The notes under the pieces: model-generated
Seen by the model: only the letters and a program-made list of their open reading frames with translations
Database searches by the model: none
What the model was told of the DNA's origin: nothing
Program-made: the position numbers and the translations under genes
Source of the DNA: Escherichia coli
Lineage (GTDB): Bacteria > Pseudomonadota > Gammaproteobacteria > Enterobacterales > Enterobacteriaceae
Length of the DNA: 64,000 bases
NCBI RefSeq assembly: GCF_002854065.1
Contig: NZ_CP024147.1
Strand: one strand, 5' to 3'
Shown: positions 6,092 to 55,441 of the stretch, piece by piece
How positions within the stretch are numbered: position 1 is the stretch's first letter
Layout: each line of letters opens with the position of its first letter

Positions 6092-6419
6092 TTATGTTGG
6101 CGTTTTCTATTCAGTATAGAAGTCGGAGCGGCTGGGCGAGATGCGGAAGTTCTGGAATGTTTCTTTTTTTGGTGATGGTGAACTGATGGTGCCTGAAGCA
6201 ATTTGGCTACTTTTGCAATGTGACAAGTTATGGCACGGCTGGCTGGTGGCGAAGAATTTTGACGATTGAGGCATGCAGAAAAAACGGGCTCAGCTTCAGT
6301 TGATTAAATGAGGAGTGAGAAGTCCGAAACAGGATTTACTGTATAAATAAACAGCTATTTTGTTGAGGAAGGGTAAGATAACGGCGGGTGCCTGAAGCTT
6401 TCCGGTTTCAGGTTTACTC

Positions 6420-6495
6420 TGAGGTCTGGAAAGATGAAGCCCCAGGAGATATTTCTATCAACCCTGGGGCTGCCACTCCAAACCAGACAATTTGG
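6420..6495 (-). ncRNA. sokE: Putative Sok-type antisense RNA region for copy 1 (position inferred, not resolved)
   Basis: In hok/sok loci the antisense RNA is transcribed opposite the leader and covers the mok/hok translation-initiation region; placed by analogy only. Confidence 0.3.
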
Positions 6496-6531
6496 ATGGT
6501 AGTTCCTTCTTCGCATGGAGGCAATATAAAC

Positions 6532-6684
6532 ATGCTGACGAAATATGCCCTTGTGGCAGTCATAGTGCTGTGTTTGACGGTACTGGGATTTACGCTTCTG
6601 GTCGGAGACTCGCTGTGTGAGTTTACGGTGAAGGAACGTAATATTGAGTTCAGGGCTGTTCTCGCTTACGAACCGAAGAAGTAG
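6532..6684 (+). CDS. hokE: Hok-family type I toxin (50 aa), copy 1; an in-frame upstream ATG at 6496 gives a 12-codon mok-like extension
   Basis: [50 protein letters not shown] is a Hok-family sequence; the ybdK-entD position is where hokE lies in E. coli. Confidence 0.85.
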
Positions 6685-6923
6685 CCGTTGTGCGGGGAGT
6701 AATCCCCGCATATCCGGTTGTCAGGTCAGGATGGTAAGGCACCTGCTTTACACTTTCGCCCGCGGTCAGTGATGGCTGCGGGCGGTTTCGTTTTAAGAGC
6801 AATGATGAGTTTTGCCGACAGAAGTCCGAAACAGGATTCACTGTATAAATAAACAGCTATTTTGCTAAGGAAGGGTAAGATAACGGCGGGTGCCTGAAGC
6901 TTTCCGGTTTCAGGTTAACTCTG

Positions 6924-6998
6924 AGGTTTGGAAAGATGAAGCCCCAGGAGATATTTCTATCAATCCTGGGGCTGCCACTCCGAACCTGAACAACTCGG
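6924..6998 (-). ncRNA. sokE: Putative Sok-type antisense RNA region for copy 2 (position inferred)
   Basis: By analogy with hok/sok architecture; the leader sequence is duplicated along with hok. Confidence 0.3.
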
Positions 6999-7034
6999 AT
7001 GGTAGTCCCTTCTTCGCATGGAGGCAATATAAAC

Positions 7035-7187
7035 ATGCTGACGAAATATGCCCTTGTGGCAGTCATAGTGCTGTGTTTGACGGTGCTGGGATTTACGCTT
7101 CTGGTCGGAGACTCGCTGTGTGAGTTCACCGTAAAGGAACGTAATATTGAGTTTAAGGCTGTTCTCGCTTACGAACCGAAGAAGTAG
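7035..7187 (+). CDS. hokE: Hok-family type I toxin (50 aa), copy 2 (R41K relative to copy 1); in-frame upstream ATG at 6999
   Basis: [50 protein letters not shown]; second unit of the tandem repeat. Confidence 0.85.
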
Positions 7188-7308
7188 CCGTTGTGCGGGG
7201 AGCAATCCCCGCATATCCGGTTGTCAGGTCAGAGTGGTAAGGCACCTGCTTTACACTTTCGCCCGCAGTCAGTGATGGCTGCGGGCGAATCGTACCAGAT
7301 GTTGTCAA

Positions 7309-12010: not shown

Positions 12011-15000
12011 GCCAGCATTTACCTTTGGTCGCCGCACAGCCCGGCATCTGGATGGCAGAAAAACTGTCGGATTTACCCTCCGCCTGGAGCGTGGCGCATT
12101 ACGTTGACTTAACCGGAGAGGTTGATGCGCCATTACTGGCCCGCGCGGTGGTTGCCGGATTAGCGCAAGCAGATACGTTGCGGATGCGTTTTACGGAAGA
12201 TAACGGCGAAGTCTGGCAATGGGTCGATGATGCGCTGATATTCGAACTGCCAGAAATTATCGACCTGCGAACCAATATTGATCCGCACGGTACTGCGCAG
12301 GCATTAATGCAGGCGGATTTGCAACAAGATTTGCGCGTCGATAGCGGTAAACCACTGGTCTTCCATCAGCTGATACAGGTGGCGGATAACCGCTGGTACT
12401 GGTATCAGCGTTATCACCATTTGCTGGTCGATGGCTTCAGTTTCCCGGCCATTACCCGCCAGATCGCCAATATTTACTGTACATGGCTGCGTGGCGAACC
12501 AACGCCTGCTTCGCCGTTTACGCCTTTCGCTGATGTAGTGGAAGAGTACCGGCAATACCGCGAAAGCGAAGCCTGGCAGCGTGATGCGGCATTCTGGGTA
12601 GAACAGCGTCGCCAACTGCCACCGCCCGCGTCACTTTCTCCGGCACCTTTACCGGGGCGTAGCGCCTCGGCAGATATTCTGCGCCTGAAACTGGAATTTA
12701 CCGACGGGGAATTCCGCCAGCTGGCTATGCAATTTTCAGGTGAGCAGCGTACCGATTTAGCTCTTGCGCTGGCGGCTTTGTGGCTGGGGCGATTGTGCAA
12801 TCGCATGGACTACGCTGCCGGATTTATCTTTATGCGTCGACTGGGGTCGGCGGCGCTGACGGCTACCGGACCTGTGCTCAACGTTTTGCCGTTGGGTATT
12901 CACATTGCGGCACAAGAAACGCTGCCGGAACTGGCAACCCGACTGGCGGCTCAACTGAAAAAAATGCGTCGCCATCAACGTTACGATGCCGAACAAATTG
13001 TCCGTGACAGCGGGCGAGCGGCAGGTGATGAACCGCTGTTTGGTCCGGTACTCAATATCAAGGTATTTGATTACCAACTGGATATTCCTGATGTTGAGGC
13101 GCAAACCCATACCCTGGCAACCGGGCCGGTTAATGACCTTGAACTGGCCCTGTTCCCGGATGAACACGGTGATTTGAGTATTGAGATCCTCGCCAATAAA
13201 CAGCGTTACGCTGAGCCAACGTTAATCCAGCATGCTGAACGCCTGAAAATGCTGATCGCCCAATTCGCCGCGGATCCGGCGCTGTTGTGCGGCGATGTCG
13301 ATATTATGCTGCCAGGTGAGTATGCGCAGCTGGCGCAGATCAACGCCACTCAGGTTGAGATTCCAGAAACCACGCTTAGCGCGCTGGTGGCAGAACAAGC
13401 GGCAAAAACACCGGATGCTCCGGCGCTGGCAGATGCGCGTTACCAGTTCAGCTATCGGGAAATGCGCGAGCAGGTGGTGGCGCTGGCGAATCTGCTGCGT
13501 GAGCACGGCGTTAAACCAGGGGACAGCGTGGCGGTGGCATTACCGCGCTCGGTCTTTTTGACCCTGGCGCTACATGCGATTGTTGAAGCCGGTGCGGCCT
13601 GGTTACCGCTGGATACGGGGTATCCGGACGATCGCCTGAAAATGATGCTGGAAGATGCGCGTCCGTCGCTGTTAATCACCACCGACGATCAACTGCCGCG
13701 CTTTGCCGATGTTCCAGATTTAACCAACCTTTGCTATAACGCCCCGCTTACACCGCAGGGCAGTGCGCCGCTGCAATTTTCACAACCGCATCACACGGCT
13801 TATATCATCTTTACCTCTGGCTCCACCGGCAGGCCGAAAGGGGTAATGGTCGGGCAGACGGCTATCGTCAACCGCCTGCTGTGGATGCAAAACCACTACC
13901 CGCTTACAGGCGAAGATGTCGTTGCCCAAAAAACGCCGTGCAGTTTTGATGTCTCGGTGTGGGAGTTTTTCTGGCCGTTTATTGCCGGGGCTAAACTGGT
14001 GATGGCTGAACCGGAAGCGCACCGCGACCCGCTCGCTATGCAGCAATTCTTTGCCGAATATGGCGTAACGACCACGCACTTTGTGCCGTCGATGCTGGCG
14101 GCATTTGTTGCATCGCTGACGCCCGAAACCGCTCGCCAGAGTTGCGCGACGTTGAAACAGGTTTTCTGTAGTGGTGAGGCCTTACCGGCTGATTTATGCC
14201 GCGAATGGCAACAGTTAACCAGCGTGCCGTTGCATAATCTGTATGGTCCAACGGAAGCGGCGGTGGATGTGAGCTGGTATCCGGCTTTTGGCGAGGAACT
14301 GGCACAGGTGCGCGGCAGCAGTGTGCCGATTGGTTATCCGGTGTGGAATACGGGCCTGCGCATTCTCGATGCGATGATGCATCCGGTGCCGCCGGGTGTG
14401 GCGGGAGATCTCTATCTCACCGGTATTCAACTGGCGCAGGGGTATCTTGGACGACCCGATCTGACCGCCAGCCGTTTTATTGCCGATCCTTTTGCCCCAG
14501 GTGAACGGATGTATCGTACCGGAGACGTTGCCCGCTGGCTGGATAACGGCGCGGTGGAGTACCTCGGGCGCAGTGACGATCAGCTAAAAATTCGCGGGCA
14601 GCGTATCGAACTGGGCGAAATCGATCGCGTGATGCAGGCGCTGCCGGATGTCGAACAAGCCGTTACCCACGCCTGTGTGATTAACCAGGCGGCAGCCACC
14701 GGTGGTGATGCGCGTCAGTTGGTGGGCTATCTGGTGTCGCAATCAGGTCTGCCGTTGGATACCAGCGCATTACAGGCACAGCTTCGCGAAACATTGCCGC
14801 CGCATATGGTGCCGGTCGTTCTGCTGCAACTGCCGCAGTTGCCACTTAGCGCCAACGGCAAGCTGGATCGCAAAGCCTTACCGTTGCCTGAACTTAAGGC
14901 ACAAACGCCGGGGCGTGCGCCGAAAGCGGGCAGTGAAACGATTATCGCTGCGGCATTCGCGTCGTTGCTGGGTTGTGACGTGCAGGATGCCGATGCTGAT

Positions 15001-32409: not shown

Positions 32410-33039
32410 CTATTTAACCGTCCAGGCGCGGGAATATTGACGGTCGGCAAACAACTCTTGCAGGCCGTTAATTTGCTTCAGGCGCAGCACTTCGTCGCTG
32501 TCCATTCCCAGCTCTTTGCCAATTTTATTATCGTCCCATCCCAACTGGCTAAGTTCACGGACGATTTCCGACATGGCGGTGATTTGATGGCGTCCACGAG
32601 CGCGATTATGACGAATAGTCGCGGCGATGCGTTGATTACGCGTACCTTCCAGACAGGTCACCGGCAAATAACCTTTTAAGCGTAATTGTAATGATGATGA
32701 GCCTTTACCAATTTCATGGCGGTGAAAACCATCCACGATTTCCAGAGCATTTTTATCCGTATGCGTGACCACAATGGGTTGGGTAAAACCATCTATTTCA
32801 ATGGATTTTTGCAGCAGTTTCTTCTCTGGCGGTGCCACATTATTGGGATTGTAATCATTTGGCACGAGCTGGCTATTTTTCACCCACAGAACGCAATCCA
32901 CTGGCTCTTCACGAAAGGGGCTAACCTGATGGATCGCCATGCGGATTTCATTAATCGCTTTGATGCGATCATCTTCCGGCAAGCTGGCGAGAAATTGCGT
33001 TAAATCCTGCGTTAATCGTTGTTGCATAGTATCCCCCAT
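32410..33039 (-). CDS. ybdM: ParB-like nuclease-domain protein YbdM
   Basis: 209-aa ORF matching recalled YbdM; 28-nt overlap with upstream ybdN. Confidence 0.8.
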   Translation of the reverse strand: MGDTMQQRLTQDLTQFLASLPEDDRIKAINEIRMAIHQVSPFREEPVDCVLWVKNSQLVPNDYNPNNVAPPEKKLLQKSIEIDGFTQPIVVTHTDKNALEIVDGFHRHEIGKGSSSLQLRLKGYLPVTCLEGTRNQRIAATIRHNRARGRHQITAMSEIVRELSQLGWDDNKIGKELGMDSDEVLRLKQINGLQELFADRQYSRAWTVK

Positions 33040-34232
33040 TCCTGACGTTTTCCTTTTATCCGTTCGTTATAACGCTGATAGTTCTTCGCTTTCGTAGGAC
33101 TAAATGATAATGCCCGACACCAGTAATCGTTATTGAGTAAAACTTTGCATATCCGCCGCCAGGAGGGGATATCTTTCGCGCCAATGTCCCCTTGCTGGGT
33201 TTGTGGAACCTCGATGCCTTTTTTCTGATACCAGTGCAAATAAATGGCGATTTTATTGCGGTAATGCTCAGCTGTTTTTTCCGGCATGCTATTGAGCAGC
33301 AATAATGCATATTCTTGCCAGTCTAAATGTTCTGGCTTGAGGATTTTCCGATGCCCATAGAAATGATTGTCATGTCCGGCGTAAATGCCGCCACTTTTTA
33401 CCCCGCTGACTCGTGCGCACATAGCAGCCCAGCGATCCGGTTCGATAACGTGATAGAGCCATAATCCTTGTCGTTGCTCCGGGCCAAAAGGTTCGCAAAT
33501 TCGCATATGACGCAGAGGAACGCCTGCCTGATACATCAGGTTATACAGTGGGTTGCAGAGACTTTGATGATTTGCATACCAGGTCCAGATATCAGCCACT
33601 TTCCAGTCGTAAATGGGATAAATGTACCAGCTATGACCGCCTGGTGCGGCCGTAGTCCAGGGTTTATCGTCGGCAAAACGTTGTTTATTTAAACTGGCGA
33701 TGGCGACAAAACGGTTGTAGGACTCATCCGCACGGATGCCGATCATCATCGCCGCCGGACGTTTTTGTGAAAACCATTCGGCAAACTCACGTACAAATTG
33801 TTCGAAGGTCATGCCTGGCTGGTAAAAGGAGAAAAAGTCAGGATCGGTTATCGCATCTTGCGGGGGCTGACGCACCCATTCGACATCAGGTTCCCAGCAC
33901 TGCCATTCGGGTTGGTATTGTGAAAGGGAATTTTGCGTCGTAAGCGGGAGCGCAACCCAGTAAAACTCTTCGATGACATCGGTGTACAACTCGTGCAGGG
34001 ACTGAACATAATTAATGGTGCAAGAGAATTGCGCCTCCCAGTCGATAAACAAAACGCAGATTTTTTTGCCCATTTGTCGGGCAAGTTCGGCTGTCAGATG
34101 CAGCATTAAACCAGAGTCTTTGCCGCCAGAAAATGAGACACAAACGCGGGGTAGGGTGTTGAGTGTCCAGGTAATACGCTCTCGTGCAGCTTCCAGAATA
34201 TTGAGCGGAAGAGGAATTTTATAAATAGACAT
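33012..34232 (-). CDS. ybdN: PAPS-reductase-like (adenine nucleotide alpha-hydrolase) protein YbdN
   Basis: 406-aa ORF with an N-terminal SFSGGKDS PP-loop motif; matches recalled YbdN. Confidence 0.8.
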   Translation of the reverse strand: MSIYKIPLPLNILEAARERITWTLNTLPRVCVSFSGGKDSGLMLHLTAELARQMGKKICVLFIDWEAQFSCTINYVQSLHELYTDVIEEFYWVALPLTTQNSLSQYQPEWQCWEPDVEWVRQPPQDAITDPDFFSFYQPGMTFEQFVREFAEWFSQKRPAAMMIGIRADESYNRFVAIASLNKQRFADDKPWTTAAPGGHSWYIYPIYDWKVADIWTWYANHQSLCNPLYNLMYQAGVPLRHMRICEPFGPEQRQGLWLYHVIEPDRWAAMCARVSGVKSGGIYAGHDNHFYGHRKILKPEHLDWQEYALLLLNSMPEKTAEHYRNKIAIYLHWYQKKGIEVPQTQQGDIGAKDIPSWRRICKVLLNNDYWCRALSFSPTKAKNYQRYNERIKGKRQEWGILCNND

Positions 34233-34774
34233 CTGAAGACGCTCTCTGAACGTTACAGGGTGATCAGTGAGATAAGACTGTTAATTATAAAGTAAACACT
34301 GAAAAGCAGAGTGTTTTATTTTTCATTCGCGCTGTGAATAAATAGGTGAAAGTTATAGTAGCTGTCTGAGGTTATATATCAAAAACACTCATTTAGACGG
34401 TCAATGAATCGTGAGAACACCAGATTGTTTAAAGAAGATTTATTATAGGAAATGTAAAGCTTTATTGAAGGTAACGGATGTTCTAGTTTTATCTCTTTTA
34501 AATTAAGAAAGTCACGGTGGGAGTTATAAAGTTCATAGGGGACTATTCCCAGTAAATCTGTAACTGCAATGCTATTAATGATTGTCAGCAAAGAGGAACC
34601 ACGAAATGAAATTTTGCGATTCATAAATCTCTCGTCTATTTCCATTTGAATATCATCAACCCCTGCTGATTTAGATATTAATTGGGTGAACTCTTCTGCC
34701 ATAATTTGTTCATAAGTGCGGTGATGCTGCCAACTTACTGATTTAGTGTATGATGGTGTTTTTGAGGTGCTCCA

Positions 34775-35050
34775 GTGGCTTCTGTTTCTATCAGCTGTCC
34801 CTCCTGTTCAGCTACTGACGGGGTGGTGCGTAACGGCAAAAGCACTGCCGGACATCAGCGCTATCTCTGCTCTCACTGCCGTAAAACATGGCAACTGCAG
34901 TTCACTTACACCGCTTCTCAACCCGGTACGCACCAGAAAATCATTGATATGGCCATGAATGGCGTTGGATGCCGGGCAACCGCCCGCATTATGGGCGTTG
35001 GCCTCAACACGATTTTCCGCCATTTAAAAAACTCAGGCCGCAGTCGGTAA
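34775..35050 (+). CDS. insA: IS1 InsA
   Basis: 91-aa [27 protein letters not shown]... (zinc-finger/HTH protein of IS1). Confidence 0.95.
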
Positions 35051-35472
35051 CCTCGCGCATACAGCCGGGCAGTGACGTCATCGTCTGCGCGGAAATGGAC
35101 GAACAGTGGGGATACGTCGGGGCTAAATCGCGCCAGCGCTGGCTGTTTTACGCGTATGACAGGCTCCGGAAGACGGTTGTTGCGCACGTATTCGGTGAAC
35201 GCACTATGGCGACGCTGGGGCGTCTTATGAGCCTGCTGTCACCCTTTGACGTGGTGATATGGATGACGGATGGCTGGCCGCTGTATGAATCCCGCCTGAA
35301 GGGAAAGCTGCACGTAATCAGCAAGCGATATACGCAGCGAATTGAGCGGCATAACCTGAATCTGAGGCAGCACCTGGCACGGCTGGGACGGAAGTCGCTG
35401 TCGTTCTCAAAATCGGTGGAGCTGCATGACAAAGTCATCGGGCATTATCTGAACATAAAACACTATCAATAA
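34969..35472 (+). CDS. insB: IS1 InsB reading frame (transposase made as InsAB' by -1 frameshift at the aaaaaac motif near 35027..35033)
   Basis: 167-aa ORF ...[21 protein letters not shown]...; the slippery a6c motif lies within the insA/insB overlap. Confidence 0.9.
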
Positions 35473-36268
35473 GTTGGAGTCATTACCCATAAGTGCTATT
35501 GTCAGTAATTCGTGGATGCCTATTACTACAAATTAGAGTATTGCGAATCGTATGCAATGGCATGCAAATGACGGAACGGCTGATCACTGGCATTTGGGTG
35601 ATCACCAGATCGGCTTTGCGGTGAACCAACAGTTCTTCAGCATTCTCTGCTGACATGAGGATATCATGGCACTCAATCTCGACAGAGGAATCTTGTCGTA
35701 GGCAGCGGATCAGCATACTATTATTAGAGCAAGAAATGAGCTGAGGGCCGTGAATAATAAAGTTTTTCTTTAGTTCGGACTTATTGACTATATTAATTGT
35801 TTGTTCAAGGCCTCTGAGATTTTTCTCAAGATGGTGATGCAGATTTAACCCTGTTGTCGTCGGCGCGATACCTTTTCCTGAGCGAATGAATAAAGGGTCA
35901 TTAAATTGCGCACGTAAGCGTTGTAACGACTGGCTCACGGCTGATGGGGTGATATATAGTGATTCAGCAGCTTTGCTAATGCTTAAATGCTGGTAAATAC
36001 ACTCAAATATGACAAGAAGATTTAAGTCGAACTTTTTCAAGTCGTAGAGATTGGTCATACACTACTCCGGTTATATTTTTCTTCCATGATATATTCACTT
36101 AATCAATGTTTTTTTTGCGTATATATTTTTATTGGTTATGTTTTTTTGCTTAACTCAGGATTAAGTTTTTCTAAAATAGCACAGCCACTTAGGGCAGAGC
36201 GAGCAATTCATGCTTTTTTAGGATGGTTGAAAAGCAGGGATATAGTTCAACCATCCATGAATTACCTT

Positions 36269-37015
36269 TTATTTATTTCCCATAATGATATTAAGCGTTT
36301 TCTGATCGGGCAACCCCACGGCCTGTTGCAGCGTATTTTCCTTACTCATGTAATAGATAGCCGGAGTGACATTTGCCCCCAGATCGTCCATCAGTTTCTC
36401 ATTGTCACTTAACACTTTCATTTGCTCTGTACTTACGTTTGCAGGCACGTTTAGCTTAAGCTTGCCACCAGAGGCTTCATATTGTTGCCAGGTTTTTGCG
36501 GGATCTTTGGAGGCAAGAATTGCCGCGGCTGTCGCCGGACTTTCTGGTTTGATAACCCCAACCAACAATGTTCTCAACTGTACTTTGCCAGAATCTACCC
36601 ACGGGCGCGCCTGCTGCCAGAACTGTTTACAATATGGGCAGAACGGATCGGCGAAGACGTAGACAATGACCGGCGCATCTTTTTTACCGTCGAGGAGCCA
36701 GTGGGATTGTTCCATCCGTTGCCACATTTCGCGTCCGGCTGGTGCGTAAATTTCTTTTTCGATAAGTGTGTTACTCAGGTTTTCACCTTTCTCGTTGTAC
36801 ATGTAACCAGAGATAGCGTGCTTACCATCTGGAGTCAGGTAGATGGTGACGCCCATATCCTGATACTTTCCGAGATAACCTTTCATTCCTCCGGGGGCAT
36901 CGAACGCTTTGATGATCGTAATACCCTGTTTTTCAATCGCTTTTACTGGAGCAGGAAGTTCCTCTGCGAAGGCGATTGCAGGAAGCAGAGCCAGTAAAAG
37001 TATCTTTTTTAACAT
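36269..37015 (-). CDS. dsbG: Periplasmic thiol:disulfide interchange protein DsbG
   Basis: Track ORF 36269..37075; recalled DsbG (248 aa) starts [17 protein letters not shown]; CPYC active site present. Confidence 0.9.
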
Positions 37016-37199
37016 TAATTTGTCCTTTTCAGTCAGTGCAAAAGTCGAGTAAAAGGCATAACCTATCATTGTCATAGGTAAGAGCTTAGATCAGGTGATT
37101 GCCCTTTGTTTATGAGGGTGTTGTAATCCATGTCGTTGTTGCATTTGTAAGGGCAACACCTCAGCCTGCAGGCAGGCGCTGAAGATACCAAAGGGTAGT

Positions 37200-37386
37200 T
37201 CAGATTACACGGTCACCTGGAAAGGGGGCCATTTTACTTTTTATCGCCGCTGGCGGTGCAAAGTTCACAAAGTTGTCTTACGAAAGTTGTAAGGTAAAAC
37301 TTATCGATTTGATAATGGAAACGCATTAGCCGAATCGGTAAAAATTGGTTACCTTACATCTCATCGAAAACACGGAGGAAGTATAG
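37200..37386 (+). promoter_or_regulatory. ahpC promoter region (expected OxyR-regulated; exact site not resolved)
   Basis: ahpCF is known to be OxyR-activated; I could not pinpoint the operator by eye. Confidence 0.3.
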
Positions 37387-37950
37387 ATGTCCTTGATTAA
37401 CACCAAAATTAAACCTTTTAAAAACCAGGCATTCAAAAACGGCGAATTCATCGAAATCACCGAAAAAGATACCGAAGGCCGCTGGAGCGTCTTCTTCTTC
37501 TACCCGGCTGACTTTACTTTCGTATGCCCGACCGAACTGGGTGACGTTGCTGACCACTACGAAGAACTGCAGAAACTGGGCGTAGACGTATACGCAGTAT
37601 CTACCGATACTCACTTCACCCACAAAGCATGGCACAGCAGCTCTGAAACCATCGCTAAAATCAAATATGCGATGATCGGCGACCCGACTGGCGCCCTGAC
37701 CCGTAACTTCGACAACATGCGTGAAGATGAAGGTCTGGCTGACCGTGCGACCTTCGTTGTTGACCCGCAAGGTATCATCCAGGCAATCGAAGTTACCGCT
37801 GAAGGCATTGGCCGTGACGCGTCTGACCTGCTGCGTAAAATCAAAGCAGCACAGTACGTAGCTTCACACCCAGGTGAAGTTTGCCCGGCTAAATGGAAAG
37901 AAGGTGAAGCAACTCTGGCTCCGTCTCTGGACCTGGTTGGTAAAATCTAA
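37387..37950 (+). CDS. ahpC: Alkyl hydroperoxide reductase peroxiredoxin subunit AhpC
   Basis: 187-aa [24 protein letters not shown]... with peroxidatic FTFVCPTEL motif. Confidence 0.95.
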
Positions 37951-38078
37951 GTTCCGCAATCGCGTAATTAATCGGGTGCTGCGGCACCCGATTTTCTTCC
38001 CCGCACCATGATGCAAGCTGCATCCAGGTAGCCGCAGAGGCCGCTTGCATGATGATGTTTAAAGCCCAGGAGATAAAC

Positions 38079-39644
38079 ATGCTCGACACAAATATGAAAA
38101 CTCAACTCAAGGCTTACCTTGAGAAATTGACCAAGCCTGTTGAGTTAATTGCCACGCTGGATGACAGCGCTAAATCGGCAGAAATCAAGGAACTGTTGGC
38201 TGAAATCGCAGAACTGTCAGACAAAGTCACCTTTAAAGAAGATAACAGCTTGCCGGTGCGTAAGCCGTCTTTCCTGATCACCAACCCAGGTTCCAACCAG
38301 GGGCCACGTTTTGCAGGCTCCCCGCTGGGCCACGAGTTCACCTCGCTGGTACTGGCGTTACTGTGGACCGGTGGTCATCCGTCGAAAGAAGCGCAGTCCC
38401 TGCTGGAGCAGATTCGCCATATTGACGGTGATTTTGAATTCGAAACCTATTACTCGCTCTCTTGCCATAACTGCCCGGACGTGGTGCAGGCGCTGAACCT
38501 GATGAGCGTATTGAACCCGCGCATCAAGCACACTGCAATTGACGGCGGCACCTTCCAGAACGAAATCACCGATCGCAACGTGATGGGCGTTCCGGCAGTG
38601 TTCGTAAACGGGAAAGAGTTTGGTCAGGGCCGCATGACGTTGACTGAAATCGTTGCCAAAATTGATACTGGCGCGGAAAAACGTGCGGCAGAAGAGCTGA
38701 ACAAGCGTGATGCTTATGACGTATTAATCGTTGGTTCCGGCCCGGCGGGTGCAGCGGCAGCAATTTACTCCGCACGTAAAGGCATCCGTACCGGTCTGAT
38801 GGGCGAACGTTTTGGTGGTCAGATCCTCGATACCGTTGATATCGAAAACTACATTTCTGTACCGAAGACTGAAGGGCAGAAGTTGGCAGGCGCACTGAAA
38901 GTTCACGTTGATGAATACGACGTTGATGTGATCGACAGCCAGAGCGCCAGCAAACTGATCCCAGCAGCAGTTGAAGGTGGTCTGCATCAGATTGAAACAG
39001 CTTCTGGCGCGGTACTGAAAGCACGCAGCATTATCGTGGCGACCGGTGCAAAATGGCGCAACATGAACGTTCCGGGCGAAGATCAGTATCGCACCAAAGG
39101 CGTGACCTACTGCCCGCACTGCGACGGCCCGCTGTTTAAAGGCAAACGCGTAGCGGTTATCGGCGGCGGTAACTCCGGCGTGGAAGCGGCAATCGACCTG
39201 GCGGGTATCGTTGAGCACGTAACTCTGCTGGAATTTGCGCCAGAAATGAAAGCCGACCAGGTGCTGCAGGACAAACTGCGCAGCCTGAAAAACGTCGATA
39301 TTATTCTGAATGCGCAAACCACGGAAGTGAAAGGCGACGGCAGCAAAGTCGTTGGTCTGGAATATCGAGATCGTGTCAGCGGCGATATTCACAACATCGA
39401 ACTGGCCGGTATTTTCGTCCAGATTGGTCTGCTGCCGAACACCAACTGGCTGGAAGGCGCAGTCGAACGTAACCGCATGGGTGAGATTATCATTGATGCG
39501 AAATGCGAAACCAACGTCAAAGGCGTGTTCGCAGCGGGTGACTGTACGACGGTTCCGTACAAGCAGATCATCATCGCCACTGGCGAAGGTGCCAAAGCCT
39601 CTCTGAGTGCTTTTGACTACCTGATTCGCACCAAAACTGCATAA
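38079..39644 (+). CDS. ahpF: Alkyl hydroperoxide reductase flavoprotein subunit AhpF
   Basis: Track ORF 38049..39644; recalled AhpF (521 aa) starts [16 protein letters not shown]; CHNC and CPHCDG redox motifs. Confidence 0.95.
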
Positions 39645-39673
39645 GAAGAAGTAAGATTCACCTGCAATCGCTT

Positions 39674-52909: not shown

Positions 52910-54295
52910 TTACTTGCCTGTGACCGCTGCTGCTGTTCCTGGCACCATCAGCTCTGTAGCAACGATAACAATCACCAGCCCAACAAGCACCGGCACCGAG
53001 GTGCGTTTTACGACTTCAAATGGTGAGATTTTCGCCATCCCGGCAACCGCAACGACTACGCCAGAAACGGGCGAAAGGGTACGGCCGAGGTTTGACGCCT
53101 GCAGCATCGGGATAGTCAAATACGCCGGGTTAATGCCGGAAGAGTGCGCCAGTTTCGGGATCATCTCAACAAACGCATAAAACGGCGCATTGCCTGAACC
53201 GGTCGTGACTGCCGCCAGCATTGTCAGAATCACCAATACCAGCATCAGGATGATACTCGCCGAACCAAACGAGGTAGCGATAGAAATCAGACTTTGAATA
53301 AAGCCGATGGTGCTAAGCCCCTGAGCGAATACCCCAGCGGCAACCAGCAGCATCACCACGTTAGCAAACGCATCTGCCATCCCGCGATAAGCCACTTCCA
53401 GACCAGAGAAAACTTTCTGGGTATTAAAGCTGCGGAGGAACTCCAGAATGGAGGCAATCAGCATACAAATCACCAGAATAGTGATGATGTGTAATTGCGG
53501 ACCCCATTTACCGTCAAAAATCAGTACACCGATGATCGGCGTGAACGGCAAAATGGCATAAAACGCAGGAGCAGTGGTGGTGATTTCACTGACATCTAAC
53601 ATTTCATGAGAGATGTGCTCTTTTTTATCCAGATAACGTTGCCAGAAGAAGTGGGCGATCGCCATGCCGATAATTGCAGCAATTGAGATAGGCAGCGTCG
53701 TTTTGAAGGCGAAGTCAATCAGCGACATTTCGGAAGCTTGCGCCGCCAGCACCACATCCCCTGAAGTCGGTGCGAGAATAATCGCCGCCGGGGAGGCACA
53801 AATGGCAGCTGCTGCCCCACGACTGATACCAACGTTTACCATCACCGGAAACAGGGTTGCCATCAGCAAAACACCCAGACCGGTTGCGGAAGAGACGGCC
53901 AGTGACATCAGACAGGCAACAAAATAGGCGGCAATCATCAGCAGGTAGGGGGAGTTAATATACTGCAATGGTTTTGACGCCAGCTTGACCACCATATCAT
54001 TCGCGCCGATATGGGTCATGTAAGCGGCAAAGCCACACAGCATCATAATCATCATGCCGAGGTCGCCGCCGCGGCTCATTAGCAATATTTTAACGTATTC
54101 AACGATATCCGTGGCGCTGTAGCCTGTTGAAGCTTGGCTGGACGGTAACACTTTGTGCCCCATAATGGCACTGATAATCAGCAATAACAGGCCACCGACA
54201 AATAACACACCAGTGGCGGAATACCCTTTAATGATGTAGCGAGCTACACCCACAATAACCACAACCCCAATAAGGAGTTCAATGAATGTCAGCAT
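52910..54295 (-). CDS. dcuC: Anaerobic C4-dicarboxylate transporter DcuC
   Basis: 461-aa polytopic membrane ORF matching recalled DcuC. Confidence 0.9.
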   Translation of the reverse strand: MLTFIELLIGVVVIVGVARYIIKGYSATGVLFVGGLLLLIISAIMGHKVLPSSQASTGYSATDIVEYVKILLMSRGGDLGMMIMMLCGFAAYMTHIGANDMVVKLASKPLQYINSPYLLMIAAYFVACLMSLAVSSATGLGVLLMATLFPVMVNVGISRGAAAAICASPAAIILAPTSGDVVLAAQASEMSLIDFAFKTTLPISIAAIIGMAIAHFFWQRYLDKKEHISHEMLDVSEITTTAPAFYAILPFTPIIGVLIFDGKWGPQLHIITILVICMLIASILEFLRSFNTQKVFSGLEVAYRGMADAFANVVMLLVAAGVFAQGLSTIGFIQSLISIATSFGSASIILMLVLVILTMLAAVTTGSGNAPFYAFVEMIPKLAHSSGINPAYLTIPMLQASNLGRTLSPVSGVVVAVAGMAKISPFEVVKRTSVPVLVGLVIVIVATELMVPGTAAAVTGK

Positions 54296-54880
54296 AATTT
54301 TTCCTGTCTCCAGGCCCCAAAGTAAATAATAAAAAATTCCTAAAGCTTAAGGAAAAAATATGCCCAATAAATTGGCGGTGGATGCTGATTAAAATCAAGA
54401 AAAACTGCCATTAAGACATTGAAGTTGCTGTTTTTATACGTAGATAACAAAACGCATATTTAGCGGTTGGCAATTATCACATAATAATGTGTGTAAATTG
54501 ATGGAGGATTGATGCAAATTTGTTAATCGCAATGGTGTTAGCTGCGGTTGCGTGCTCAGAAAATAATCTACCATGAGCATGGGTTGACGATATATATTAT
54601 ATGCTTCGTTAAGATGATTGTTGTATTTCATTGAAAAATAAAGAAATATTTCCTTGATTGCATTTTGTCATCAAAAAAGACTTGGTTTTTTTTTGACTAT
54701 TCCCATCGAAGAAAACGACGCATCATCTTTAATCGATGCGCGGAAATATTTAACTTAAACAAGCGGAAATAAATAGAGCAGCTATTCAGATTATTCTTTA
54801 TGTTGGGGCTATTAAGGTTATGTTAATTGTAGCTTTGCTATGCTAGTAGTAGATTTTTGATAAATGTTTTATGGTCACAA

Positions 54881-55441
54881 ATGAACGTGAGTAAATATGT
54901 CGCTATCTTTTCCTTTGTTTTTATTCAGTTAATCAGCGTTGGTAAAGCTTTTGCTAACGCAGATGAGTGGATGACAACGTTTAGAGAAAATATTGCACAA
55001 ACCTGGCAACAGCCTGAACATTATGATTTATATATTCCTGCCATCACCTGGCATGCACGTTTCGCTTACGACAAAGAAAAAACCGATCGCTATAACGAGC
55101 GACCGTGGGGTGGCGGTTTTGGCCTGTCGCGTTGGGATGAAAAAGGAAACTGGCATGGCCTGTATGCCATGGCATTTAAGGACTCGTGGAACAAATGGGA
55201 ACCGATTGCCGGATACGGATGGGAAAGTACCTGGCGACCGCTGGCGGATGAAAATTTTCATTTAGGTCTGGGATTCACCGCTGGCGTAACGGCACGTGAT
55301 AACTGGAATTACATCCCTCTCCCGGTTCTACTGCCATTGGCCTCCGTGGGTTATGGTCCAGTGACTTTTCAGATGACCTATATTCCGGGTACCTACAACA
55401 ATGGCAATGTGTACTTTGCCTGGATGCGCTTTCAGTTTTGA
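54881..55441 (+). CDS. pagP: Lipid A palmitoyltransferase PagP (CrcA)
   Basis: Track ORF 54857..55441; recalled PagP (186 aa) starts [25 protein letters not shown]. Confidence 0.9.

Follow-up and report, generated by a model that had tools for sequence, protein, structure and literature searches.

Recent insertion of IS1 into the LysR-type repressor gene citR (ybdO) of an Escherichia coli strain, with probable loss of the repressor

The window analyzed here is a stretch of 64,000 nucleotides from an Escherichia coli genome (RefSeq assembly GCF_002854065.1, contig NZ_CP024147.1), and the genes surrounding the insertion described below are those of the E. coli ent-fep-cstA-ybdL-ybdM-ybdN-ybdO-dsbG-ahpCF-cit region. 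The LysR-type gene ybdO is now named citR (RefSeq product, “citR, DNA-binding transcriptional repressor CitR”; b0603 in K-12). In the window it runs on the minus strand from 36058 to 34379 and is split after codon 190 by an IS1 element, so that the interval 34379-36058, to which a preliminary description had assigned the disruption, is exactly that of the interrupted gene. As was also described there, ybdO is located upstream of and co-oriented with ybdN and ybdM, all three genes being on the minus strand in the order ybdO, ybdN, ybdM. The features of the locus are as follows.

32410-33039, minus strand: ybdM, 209 amino acids, ParB_N/IbrB-like, intact; overlaps the 3' end of ybdN by 28 nt
33012-34232, minus strand: ybdN, 406 amino acids, PAPS-reductase and DUF3440 domains, intact
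34233-34378, minus strand: ybdO-ybdN spacer, 146 nt, GC content 0.36
34379-34719, minus strand: 3' fragment of ybdO/citR, approximately codons 188 to 300 plus the stop codon, cut off from the promoter
34711-34719, no strand: left copy of the 9-bp target-site duplication, CATAAGTGC, abutting the end of IRL; single copy in the empty site of strain CUWW06
34720-35487, plus strand: IS1, complete, an IS1B/IS1C-like variant (767/768 identities with K-12 IS1B/C, 760/768 with K-12 IS1A); missing in CUWW06
34720-34742, plus strand: IRL, the left terminal inverted repeat, GGTGATGCTGCCAACTTACTGAT
34775-35050, plus strand: insA, 91 amino acids, IS1 repressor/DNA-binding protein (Pfam Zn_ribbon_InsA and HTH_Tnp_IS1)
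34969-35472, plus strand: insB' frame, the DDE catalytic part of the InsAB' transposase (Pfam DDE_Tnp_IS1, E = 2.3e-78)
35026-35032, plus strand: A6C (AAAAAAC) site of −1 programmed frameshifting, within the motif TTAAAAAACTC, which begins at 35024
35465-35487, plus strand: IRR, the right terminal inverted repeat; the right end of IS1 is ATCAATAAGTTGGAGTCATTACC
35483-36058, minus strand: 5' fragment of ybdO/citR, 191 amino acids (190 native residues and a Gly), with its stop codon inside IS1
35488-35496, no strand: right copy of the target-site duplication, CATAAGTGC, ybdO gene nt 563-571, abutting the end of IRR
36059-36268, minus strand: ybdO-dsbG intergenic region, GC content 0.32, with the H-NS-silenced ybdO promoter

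The ParB_N match of ybdM (24.4 bits) is just under the Pfam cut-off of 26.3. Elsewhere in the window, positions 6318-7287 contain a tandem pair of hokE/sok toxin-antitoxin loci that are about 95% identical to each other; Rfam sok matches lie at 6386-6540 and 6888-7043, and both loci are annotated in CUWW06 as well.

The element is exactly 768 bp long. The preliminary description had called it complete on the strength of its inverted repeats, insA, insB, and the A6C motif, and we recovered each of these. IRL and IRR agree at 18 of their 23 outermost terminal positions, the repeats of IS1 being imperfect and some 23 to 30 bp long, and a simulated −1 shift at the A6C site yields an open InsAB' frame of 232 amino acids without interruption. 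A sigma-70-like match (CTGCCA-16-TATGAT, 34727-34754) overlaps IRL where the IS1 promoter is expected, as this promoter is known to lie partly over IRL; the structure of IS1 and its target duplications of 8 to 9 bp have likewise been described (PMC12428005). Thus, this is a textbook IS1, in which every defining feature that can be examined in a sequence is present. The direct repeat noted at its borders also held up. In the whole 64 kb, CATAAGTGC is present at these two positions and nowhere else, with a spacing of 777 nt (768 + 9), and the chance of a repeated 9-mer at that exact position is about 4e-6.

The window IS1 differs from K-12 IS1A at eight positions and from K-12 IS1B/IS1C at a single one, nt 704 (window position 35423), which is T here and A in K-12. 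As a result, residue 217 of InsAB' is Leu in the window copy and Gln in K-12 IS1B/C (L026:1164-1931 and 12635-13402). The K-12 base, A704, was found in none (0/22) of the independently inserted IS1 copies that we examined. Because the K-12 IS1B/C copies are reportedly almost immobile (PMC12428005) and A704 is absent from those 22 inserted copies, L217Q in InsAB' is a candidate for the change that inactivated them. Judging from its intact open reading frames and ends and from its recent insertion, the window copy is probably functional for transposition.

When IS1 and one copy of the repeat are removed in silico, the minus-strand open reading frames 35483-36058 and 34379-34702 are joined into one of 903 nt. 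This frame encodes 300 amino acids, with Pfam domains HTH_1 at residues 12-70 and LysR_substrate at residues 135-298, in agreement with the earlier proposal that excision restores an in-frame LysR protein of about 300 residues. The rejoined protein shares 296 of 300 residues with K-12 YbdO/CitR (four residues differ), and the gene order is alike in K-12. In the interrupted allele, the CitR frame ends inside the LysR substrate domain, and IS1 separates the final 110 codons from the promoter. In all likelihood, then, citR::IS1 is a null allele or one with severe loss of function, although some capacity to bind DNA may survive in the 191-residue fragment, in which the helix-turn-helix domain, the linker, and the beginning of the effector domain are preserved.

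The interrupted gene has been regarded as horizontally acquired, and H-NS binds and silences its promoter together with the 5' part of the coding sequence (PMC4720273, PMC9141747). Its GC content is 38.6%, and the flanking intergenic regions have 32 to 36% GC. Transcription of ybdO has been reported to start 107 nt upstream of the ATG, with upstream and downstream elements (URE/DRE) mediating H-NS repression (PMC4720273); judged from the K-12 numbering, this start would map near window position 36165.

The nearest complete genome is that of CUWW06 (NZ_CP182139.1), which is 99.98% identical to the window over 38.9 kb (7 mismatches). It aligns without gaps to window positions 1-34719 (6 mismatches) and 35488-39663 (1 mismatch); on the CUWW06 side, these alignments share 9 bp. 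This is the empty site, with a single CATAAGTGC and contiguous ybdO halves, and the preliminary description thus passes the alignment to an uninterrupted allele by which it might have been refuted. The rejoined ybdO is identical to CUWW06 citR at all 903 nt; therefore, citR has not decayed since the insertion. The exact left junction, searched as a 60-nt probe, had a full-length match in none of 5,426 complete E. coli genomes, whereas an exact look-up of the junction-specific 191-residue product retrieved one draft assembly, GCA_035821435.1. On a 58-kb contig of this draft, ybdO and IS1 meet at exactly the point seen in the window; the contig ends after 74 nt of IS1 and has a single mismatch to the window over 3,646 bases. 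Separately, one base in dsbG (window position 36907) differs from both CUWW06 and GCA_035821435.1 and represents either a private single-nucleotide polymorphism or a sequencing error.

Because IS1 is multicopy and often confuses assemblies, one might ask whether a repeat copy was simply misplaced at citR. We regard this as extremely improbable, since the element has a perfect 9-bp duplication at both of its ends and an independent draft has the same junction, broken inside IS1 as short-read assemblies do. The occurrence of the junction in a single draft and in none of the complete genomes points instead to a genuine, recent insertion limited to one narrow lineage. The recency that had been surmised from the otherwise intact gene is thus upheld.

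What the insertion does to ybdN and ybdM depends on where these genes are transcribed from, and the published accounts differ. Higashi et al. treated ybdO as apparently monocistronic (PMC4720273), while Rodionova et al. described a citR-ybdNM unit (PMC9068703). In the latter study, the only CitR ChIP-exo peak was upstream of citR, and deletion of citR strongly increased ybdN, moderately increased ybdM, and affected citCDEF, leading to the view that CitR represses ybdNM. These data accord with the earlier suggestion that loss of the regulator could change ybdN-ybdM expression. Since the published rise comes from a deletion mutant, read-through from the cassette or scar could contribute to it.

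There are two plausible outcomes. (i) Should ybdN be transcribed from a promoter of its own, derepression of ybdNM would be expected once CitR is lost. A separate FNR-dependent ybdN promoter is cited as an EcoCyc prediction, and a weak promoter-like match (TTGATA-16-TACTAT, 34382→34355) is located at the ybdO stop codon, the only such match for the spacer; together with the single-cistron treatment by Higashi et al., both count against outcome ii. (ii) If ybdNM is read mainly from the citR promoter, IS1 should lower its expression by polarity. The single ChIP-exo peak and the citR-ybdNM unit of Rodionova et al. would fit such an arrangement. No intrinsic terminator was predicted in the 146-nt ybdO-ybdN spacer, whose fold (z-score, 0.08) is no better than that of shuffled sequences; read-through from the citR promoter is therefore possible. 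Furthermore, the stop codon is reached 5 nt into IS1, and the RNA from there to ybdN, over 1.2 kb, goes untranslated. Such a stretch favors termination by Rho, and polarity in either orientation is a classical property of IS1. Derepression and polarity appear roughly comparable, and polarity taken by itself is a tentative proposal, possible rather than probable.

The preliminary description had also considered that transcription out of IS1 could alter ybdN-ybdM expression, and this part gained no support. Prentki et al. (1986) reportedly observed hybrid promoters formed by IS1 ends at some sites, and ybdN does begin 479 nt past the IRL end, on the strand that such a promoter would serve. However, insA and insAB' are transcribed on the plus strand, so that the IS1 promoter points away from ybdN. 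At standard and relaxed thresholds alike, no sigma-70-like site was found pointing out of IRL, and no −35 element in IS1 could be paired with a −10 element in the flank; we therefore rejected an outward or hybrid promoter as a likely mechanism. The IS1 copies in ybdO of other strains (see below) occur in both orientations, which also argues against an orientation-dependent benefit. Activation by read-out from IS1 is thus very unlikely, and the likely effects on ybdN-ybdM are derepression or polarity.

IS1 insertions at this locus are not limited to the window. A search with the interrupted locus retrieved 205 complete genomes with a same-orientation IS1 in or beside ybdO, at 12 distinct sites. 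A synthetic query with IS1 reversed added 17 genomes and about 13 partial matches with adjacent deletions, again at many distinct sites; independent events thus occurred in both orientations, and we discarded the idea of an orientation bias. Of these loci, 22 were retrieved and placed on the coordinates of the empty site. They add 20 distinct sites to that of the window, with 13 events in ybdO itself and two upstream of it, three in ybdN, one in the ybdN-ybdO spacer, and one at the 3' end of dsbG. In total, there are at least 22 other independent IS1 insertions in the ybdN-ybdO-dsbG interval, in both orientations and with several IS1 sequence types. Their target duplications are 8 or 9 bp. Hundreds of public genomes have a comparably disrupted ybdO that their annotation lists as a pseudogene.

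Some of these alleles deserve mention in their own right. Six independent insertions, including that of the window, fall within 63 bp (ybdO nt 509-571, empty-site positions 34711-34773; the other five are L001, L002, L005, L015, and L023), and this segment looks like a genuine local IS1 hot spot. Within it, the octamer GTAATTCG (ybdO nt 547-554) was used twice, in opposite orientations and by different IS1 types (L002 and L023). The L002 allele (NZ_CP033401.1, L002:2037-2804) is one ybdO::IS1 junction common to about 191 to 193 complete genomes (about 3.5%), so that citR is a shared pseudogene in that set; its carriers include AMA1167, the reference strain of ST410 and the only carrier that was typed. 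In two loci, IS1 lies upstream of an intact ybdO: at −58 to −51 in L007, between the published start (−107) and the ATG, and at −161 to −152 in L003, adjoining the upstream regulatory element of H-NS (−250 to −176). Other loci are more complex, with an IS3 beside IS1 within ybdO (L014), IS1 followed by an IS66 remnant with loss of the 5' part of ybdO (L015), or a second IS1 on the ybdN side (L025).

As controls, the same IS1 was inserted in silico, in plus orientation, at four other loci of the window, and these were searched alike, with the following counts of genomes having IS1 nearby.

ahpF, flank GC content 0.54: no genomes
entF, flank GC content 0.58: three to four genomes, two of the matches being in the AT-richer fepE
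citC-dpiB intergenic region, flank GC content 0.41: one genome
dcuC-pagP, flank GC content 0.40: 9 to 11 genomes, mostly separate events, several of them splitting pagP
ybdO region, flank GC content 0.37: 205 genomes, 12 distinct sites

The ybdO region is the most often hit of the five loci, yet others were struck too, and four controls are too few for a statement of significance. The dcuC-pagP interval (window positions ~53980-55200; 9 genomes plus 2 partial matches, H138-H148) is itself an AT-rich, recurrent IS1 target, and we abandoned the notion that ybdO is a uniquely hot one.

It is conceivable that loss of CitR is adaptive and that the repeated ybdO::IS1 alleles reflect convergent selection. 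At least 14 independent IS1 insertions, the window's included, lie inside a gene of 903 bp, one allele is common to about 192 genomes, and the 12 sites of the ybdO region (one orientation) exceed the counts at all four controls; in addition, deletion of ybdO in avian pathogenic E. coli improved H2O2 survival and somewhat increased chick lethality (PMC11681634). On the other hand, the 9 to 11 matches at dcuC-pagP indicate that preference for AT-rich DNA alone can give similar counts, IS1 also entered ybdN and both intergenic regions, beyond the regulator, and the window allele is limited to a very narrow lineage. Loss of ybdO also lowers virulence in K1 strains, in which its deletion reduced capsule expression and invasion (PMC9141747). 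Convergent selection is therefore unlikely to explain the recurrence, and the more specific idea that citR is a repeatedly selected loss-of-function target, with the window allele as a new case of such convergence and not a neutral event in an AT-rich hot spot, appears even less probable. If it were true, IS1 knock-outs of citR would be beneficial, for example, via derepressed oxidative-stress, iron-uptake, or ybdNM functions. The simplest reading of the recurrent hits is the known preference of IS1 for AT-rich targets, reportedly described by Zerbib et al. in 1985.

Taken together, a recent IS1 transposition into citR, with a likely null allele as the result, best explains the locus as a whole, and we give this reading a probability of roughly 0.93. 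A presumably functional IS1B/C-like copy moved into citR codons 188-191 with the usual 9-bp duplication, at a site that suits the AT preference of IS1, within a gene that is low in GC, horizontally acquired, and H-NS-bound. The CitR frame thereby ends after residue 190, in the effector-binding/oligomerization domain, and with the last 110 codons separated from the promoter, the strain is most likely citR null, presumably with loss of the CitR control over its regulon that is known from the literature. No special mechanism is required.

In itself, the event is of little importance, being a strain-level knock-out of a nonessential, normally silenced regulator by the best-studied insertion sequence. 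Its use may lie in the pairing of a natural citR null with the near-isogenic, intact CUWW06, which would allow the reported repression of ybdNM and citCDEF by CitR to be checked. The many separate IS1 hits in ybdO may also offer a modest lead on how insertion sequences choose their targets and on the role of CitR in pathogenic lineages. A literature search for IS1 in ybdO found nothing relevant; the exact site is apparently unreported, while the kind of event is already known and nothing about it is new in kind.

Among known systems, the K-12 IS1B/IS1C copies resemble the window copy in their 768 bp, terminal repeats, insA, insB', A6C site, and 8- to 9-bp duplication, but they are reported to be almost immobile (PMC12428005), whereas the window variant clearly moved recently. 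The allele of about 192 genomes (e.g., WCHEC020031 and AMA1167) affects the same gene with an identically oriented IS1, whose site is only 17 bp from that of the window when both are placed on the empty-site sequence. It is nevertheless an independent event, with an 8-bp duplication (GTAATTCG), a divergent IS1 (699/768), and a large lineage, in contrast to the window allele, which is found in one other assembly. Classical insertional inactivation and the activation of the H-NS-silenced bgl operon by insertion sequences likewise involve AT-rich, H-NS-bound DNA (PMC4720273, PMC9678765). At bgl, however, the element sits in the upstream silencer and activates, while the IS1 of the window sits in coding sequence at +563 and destroys the gene. 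The closer parallels to bgl are the upstream insertions of L007 and L003, which, by analogy, could alter the H-NS silencing of ybdO.
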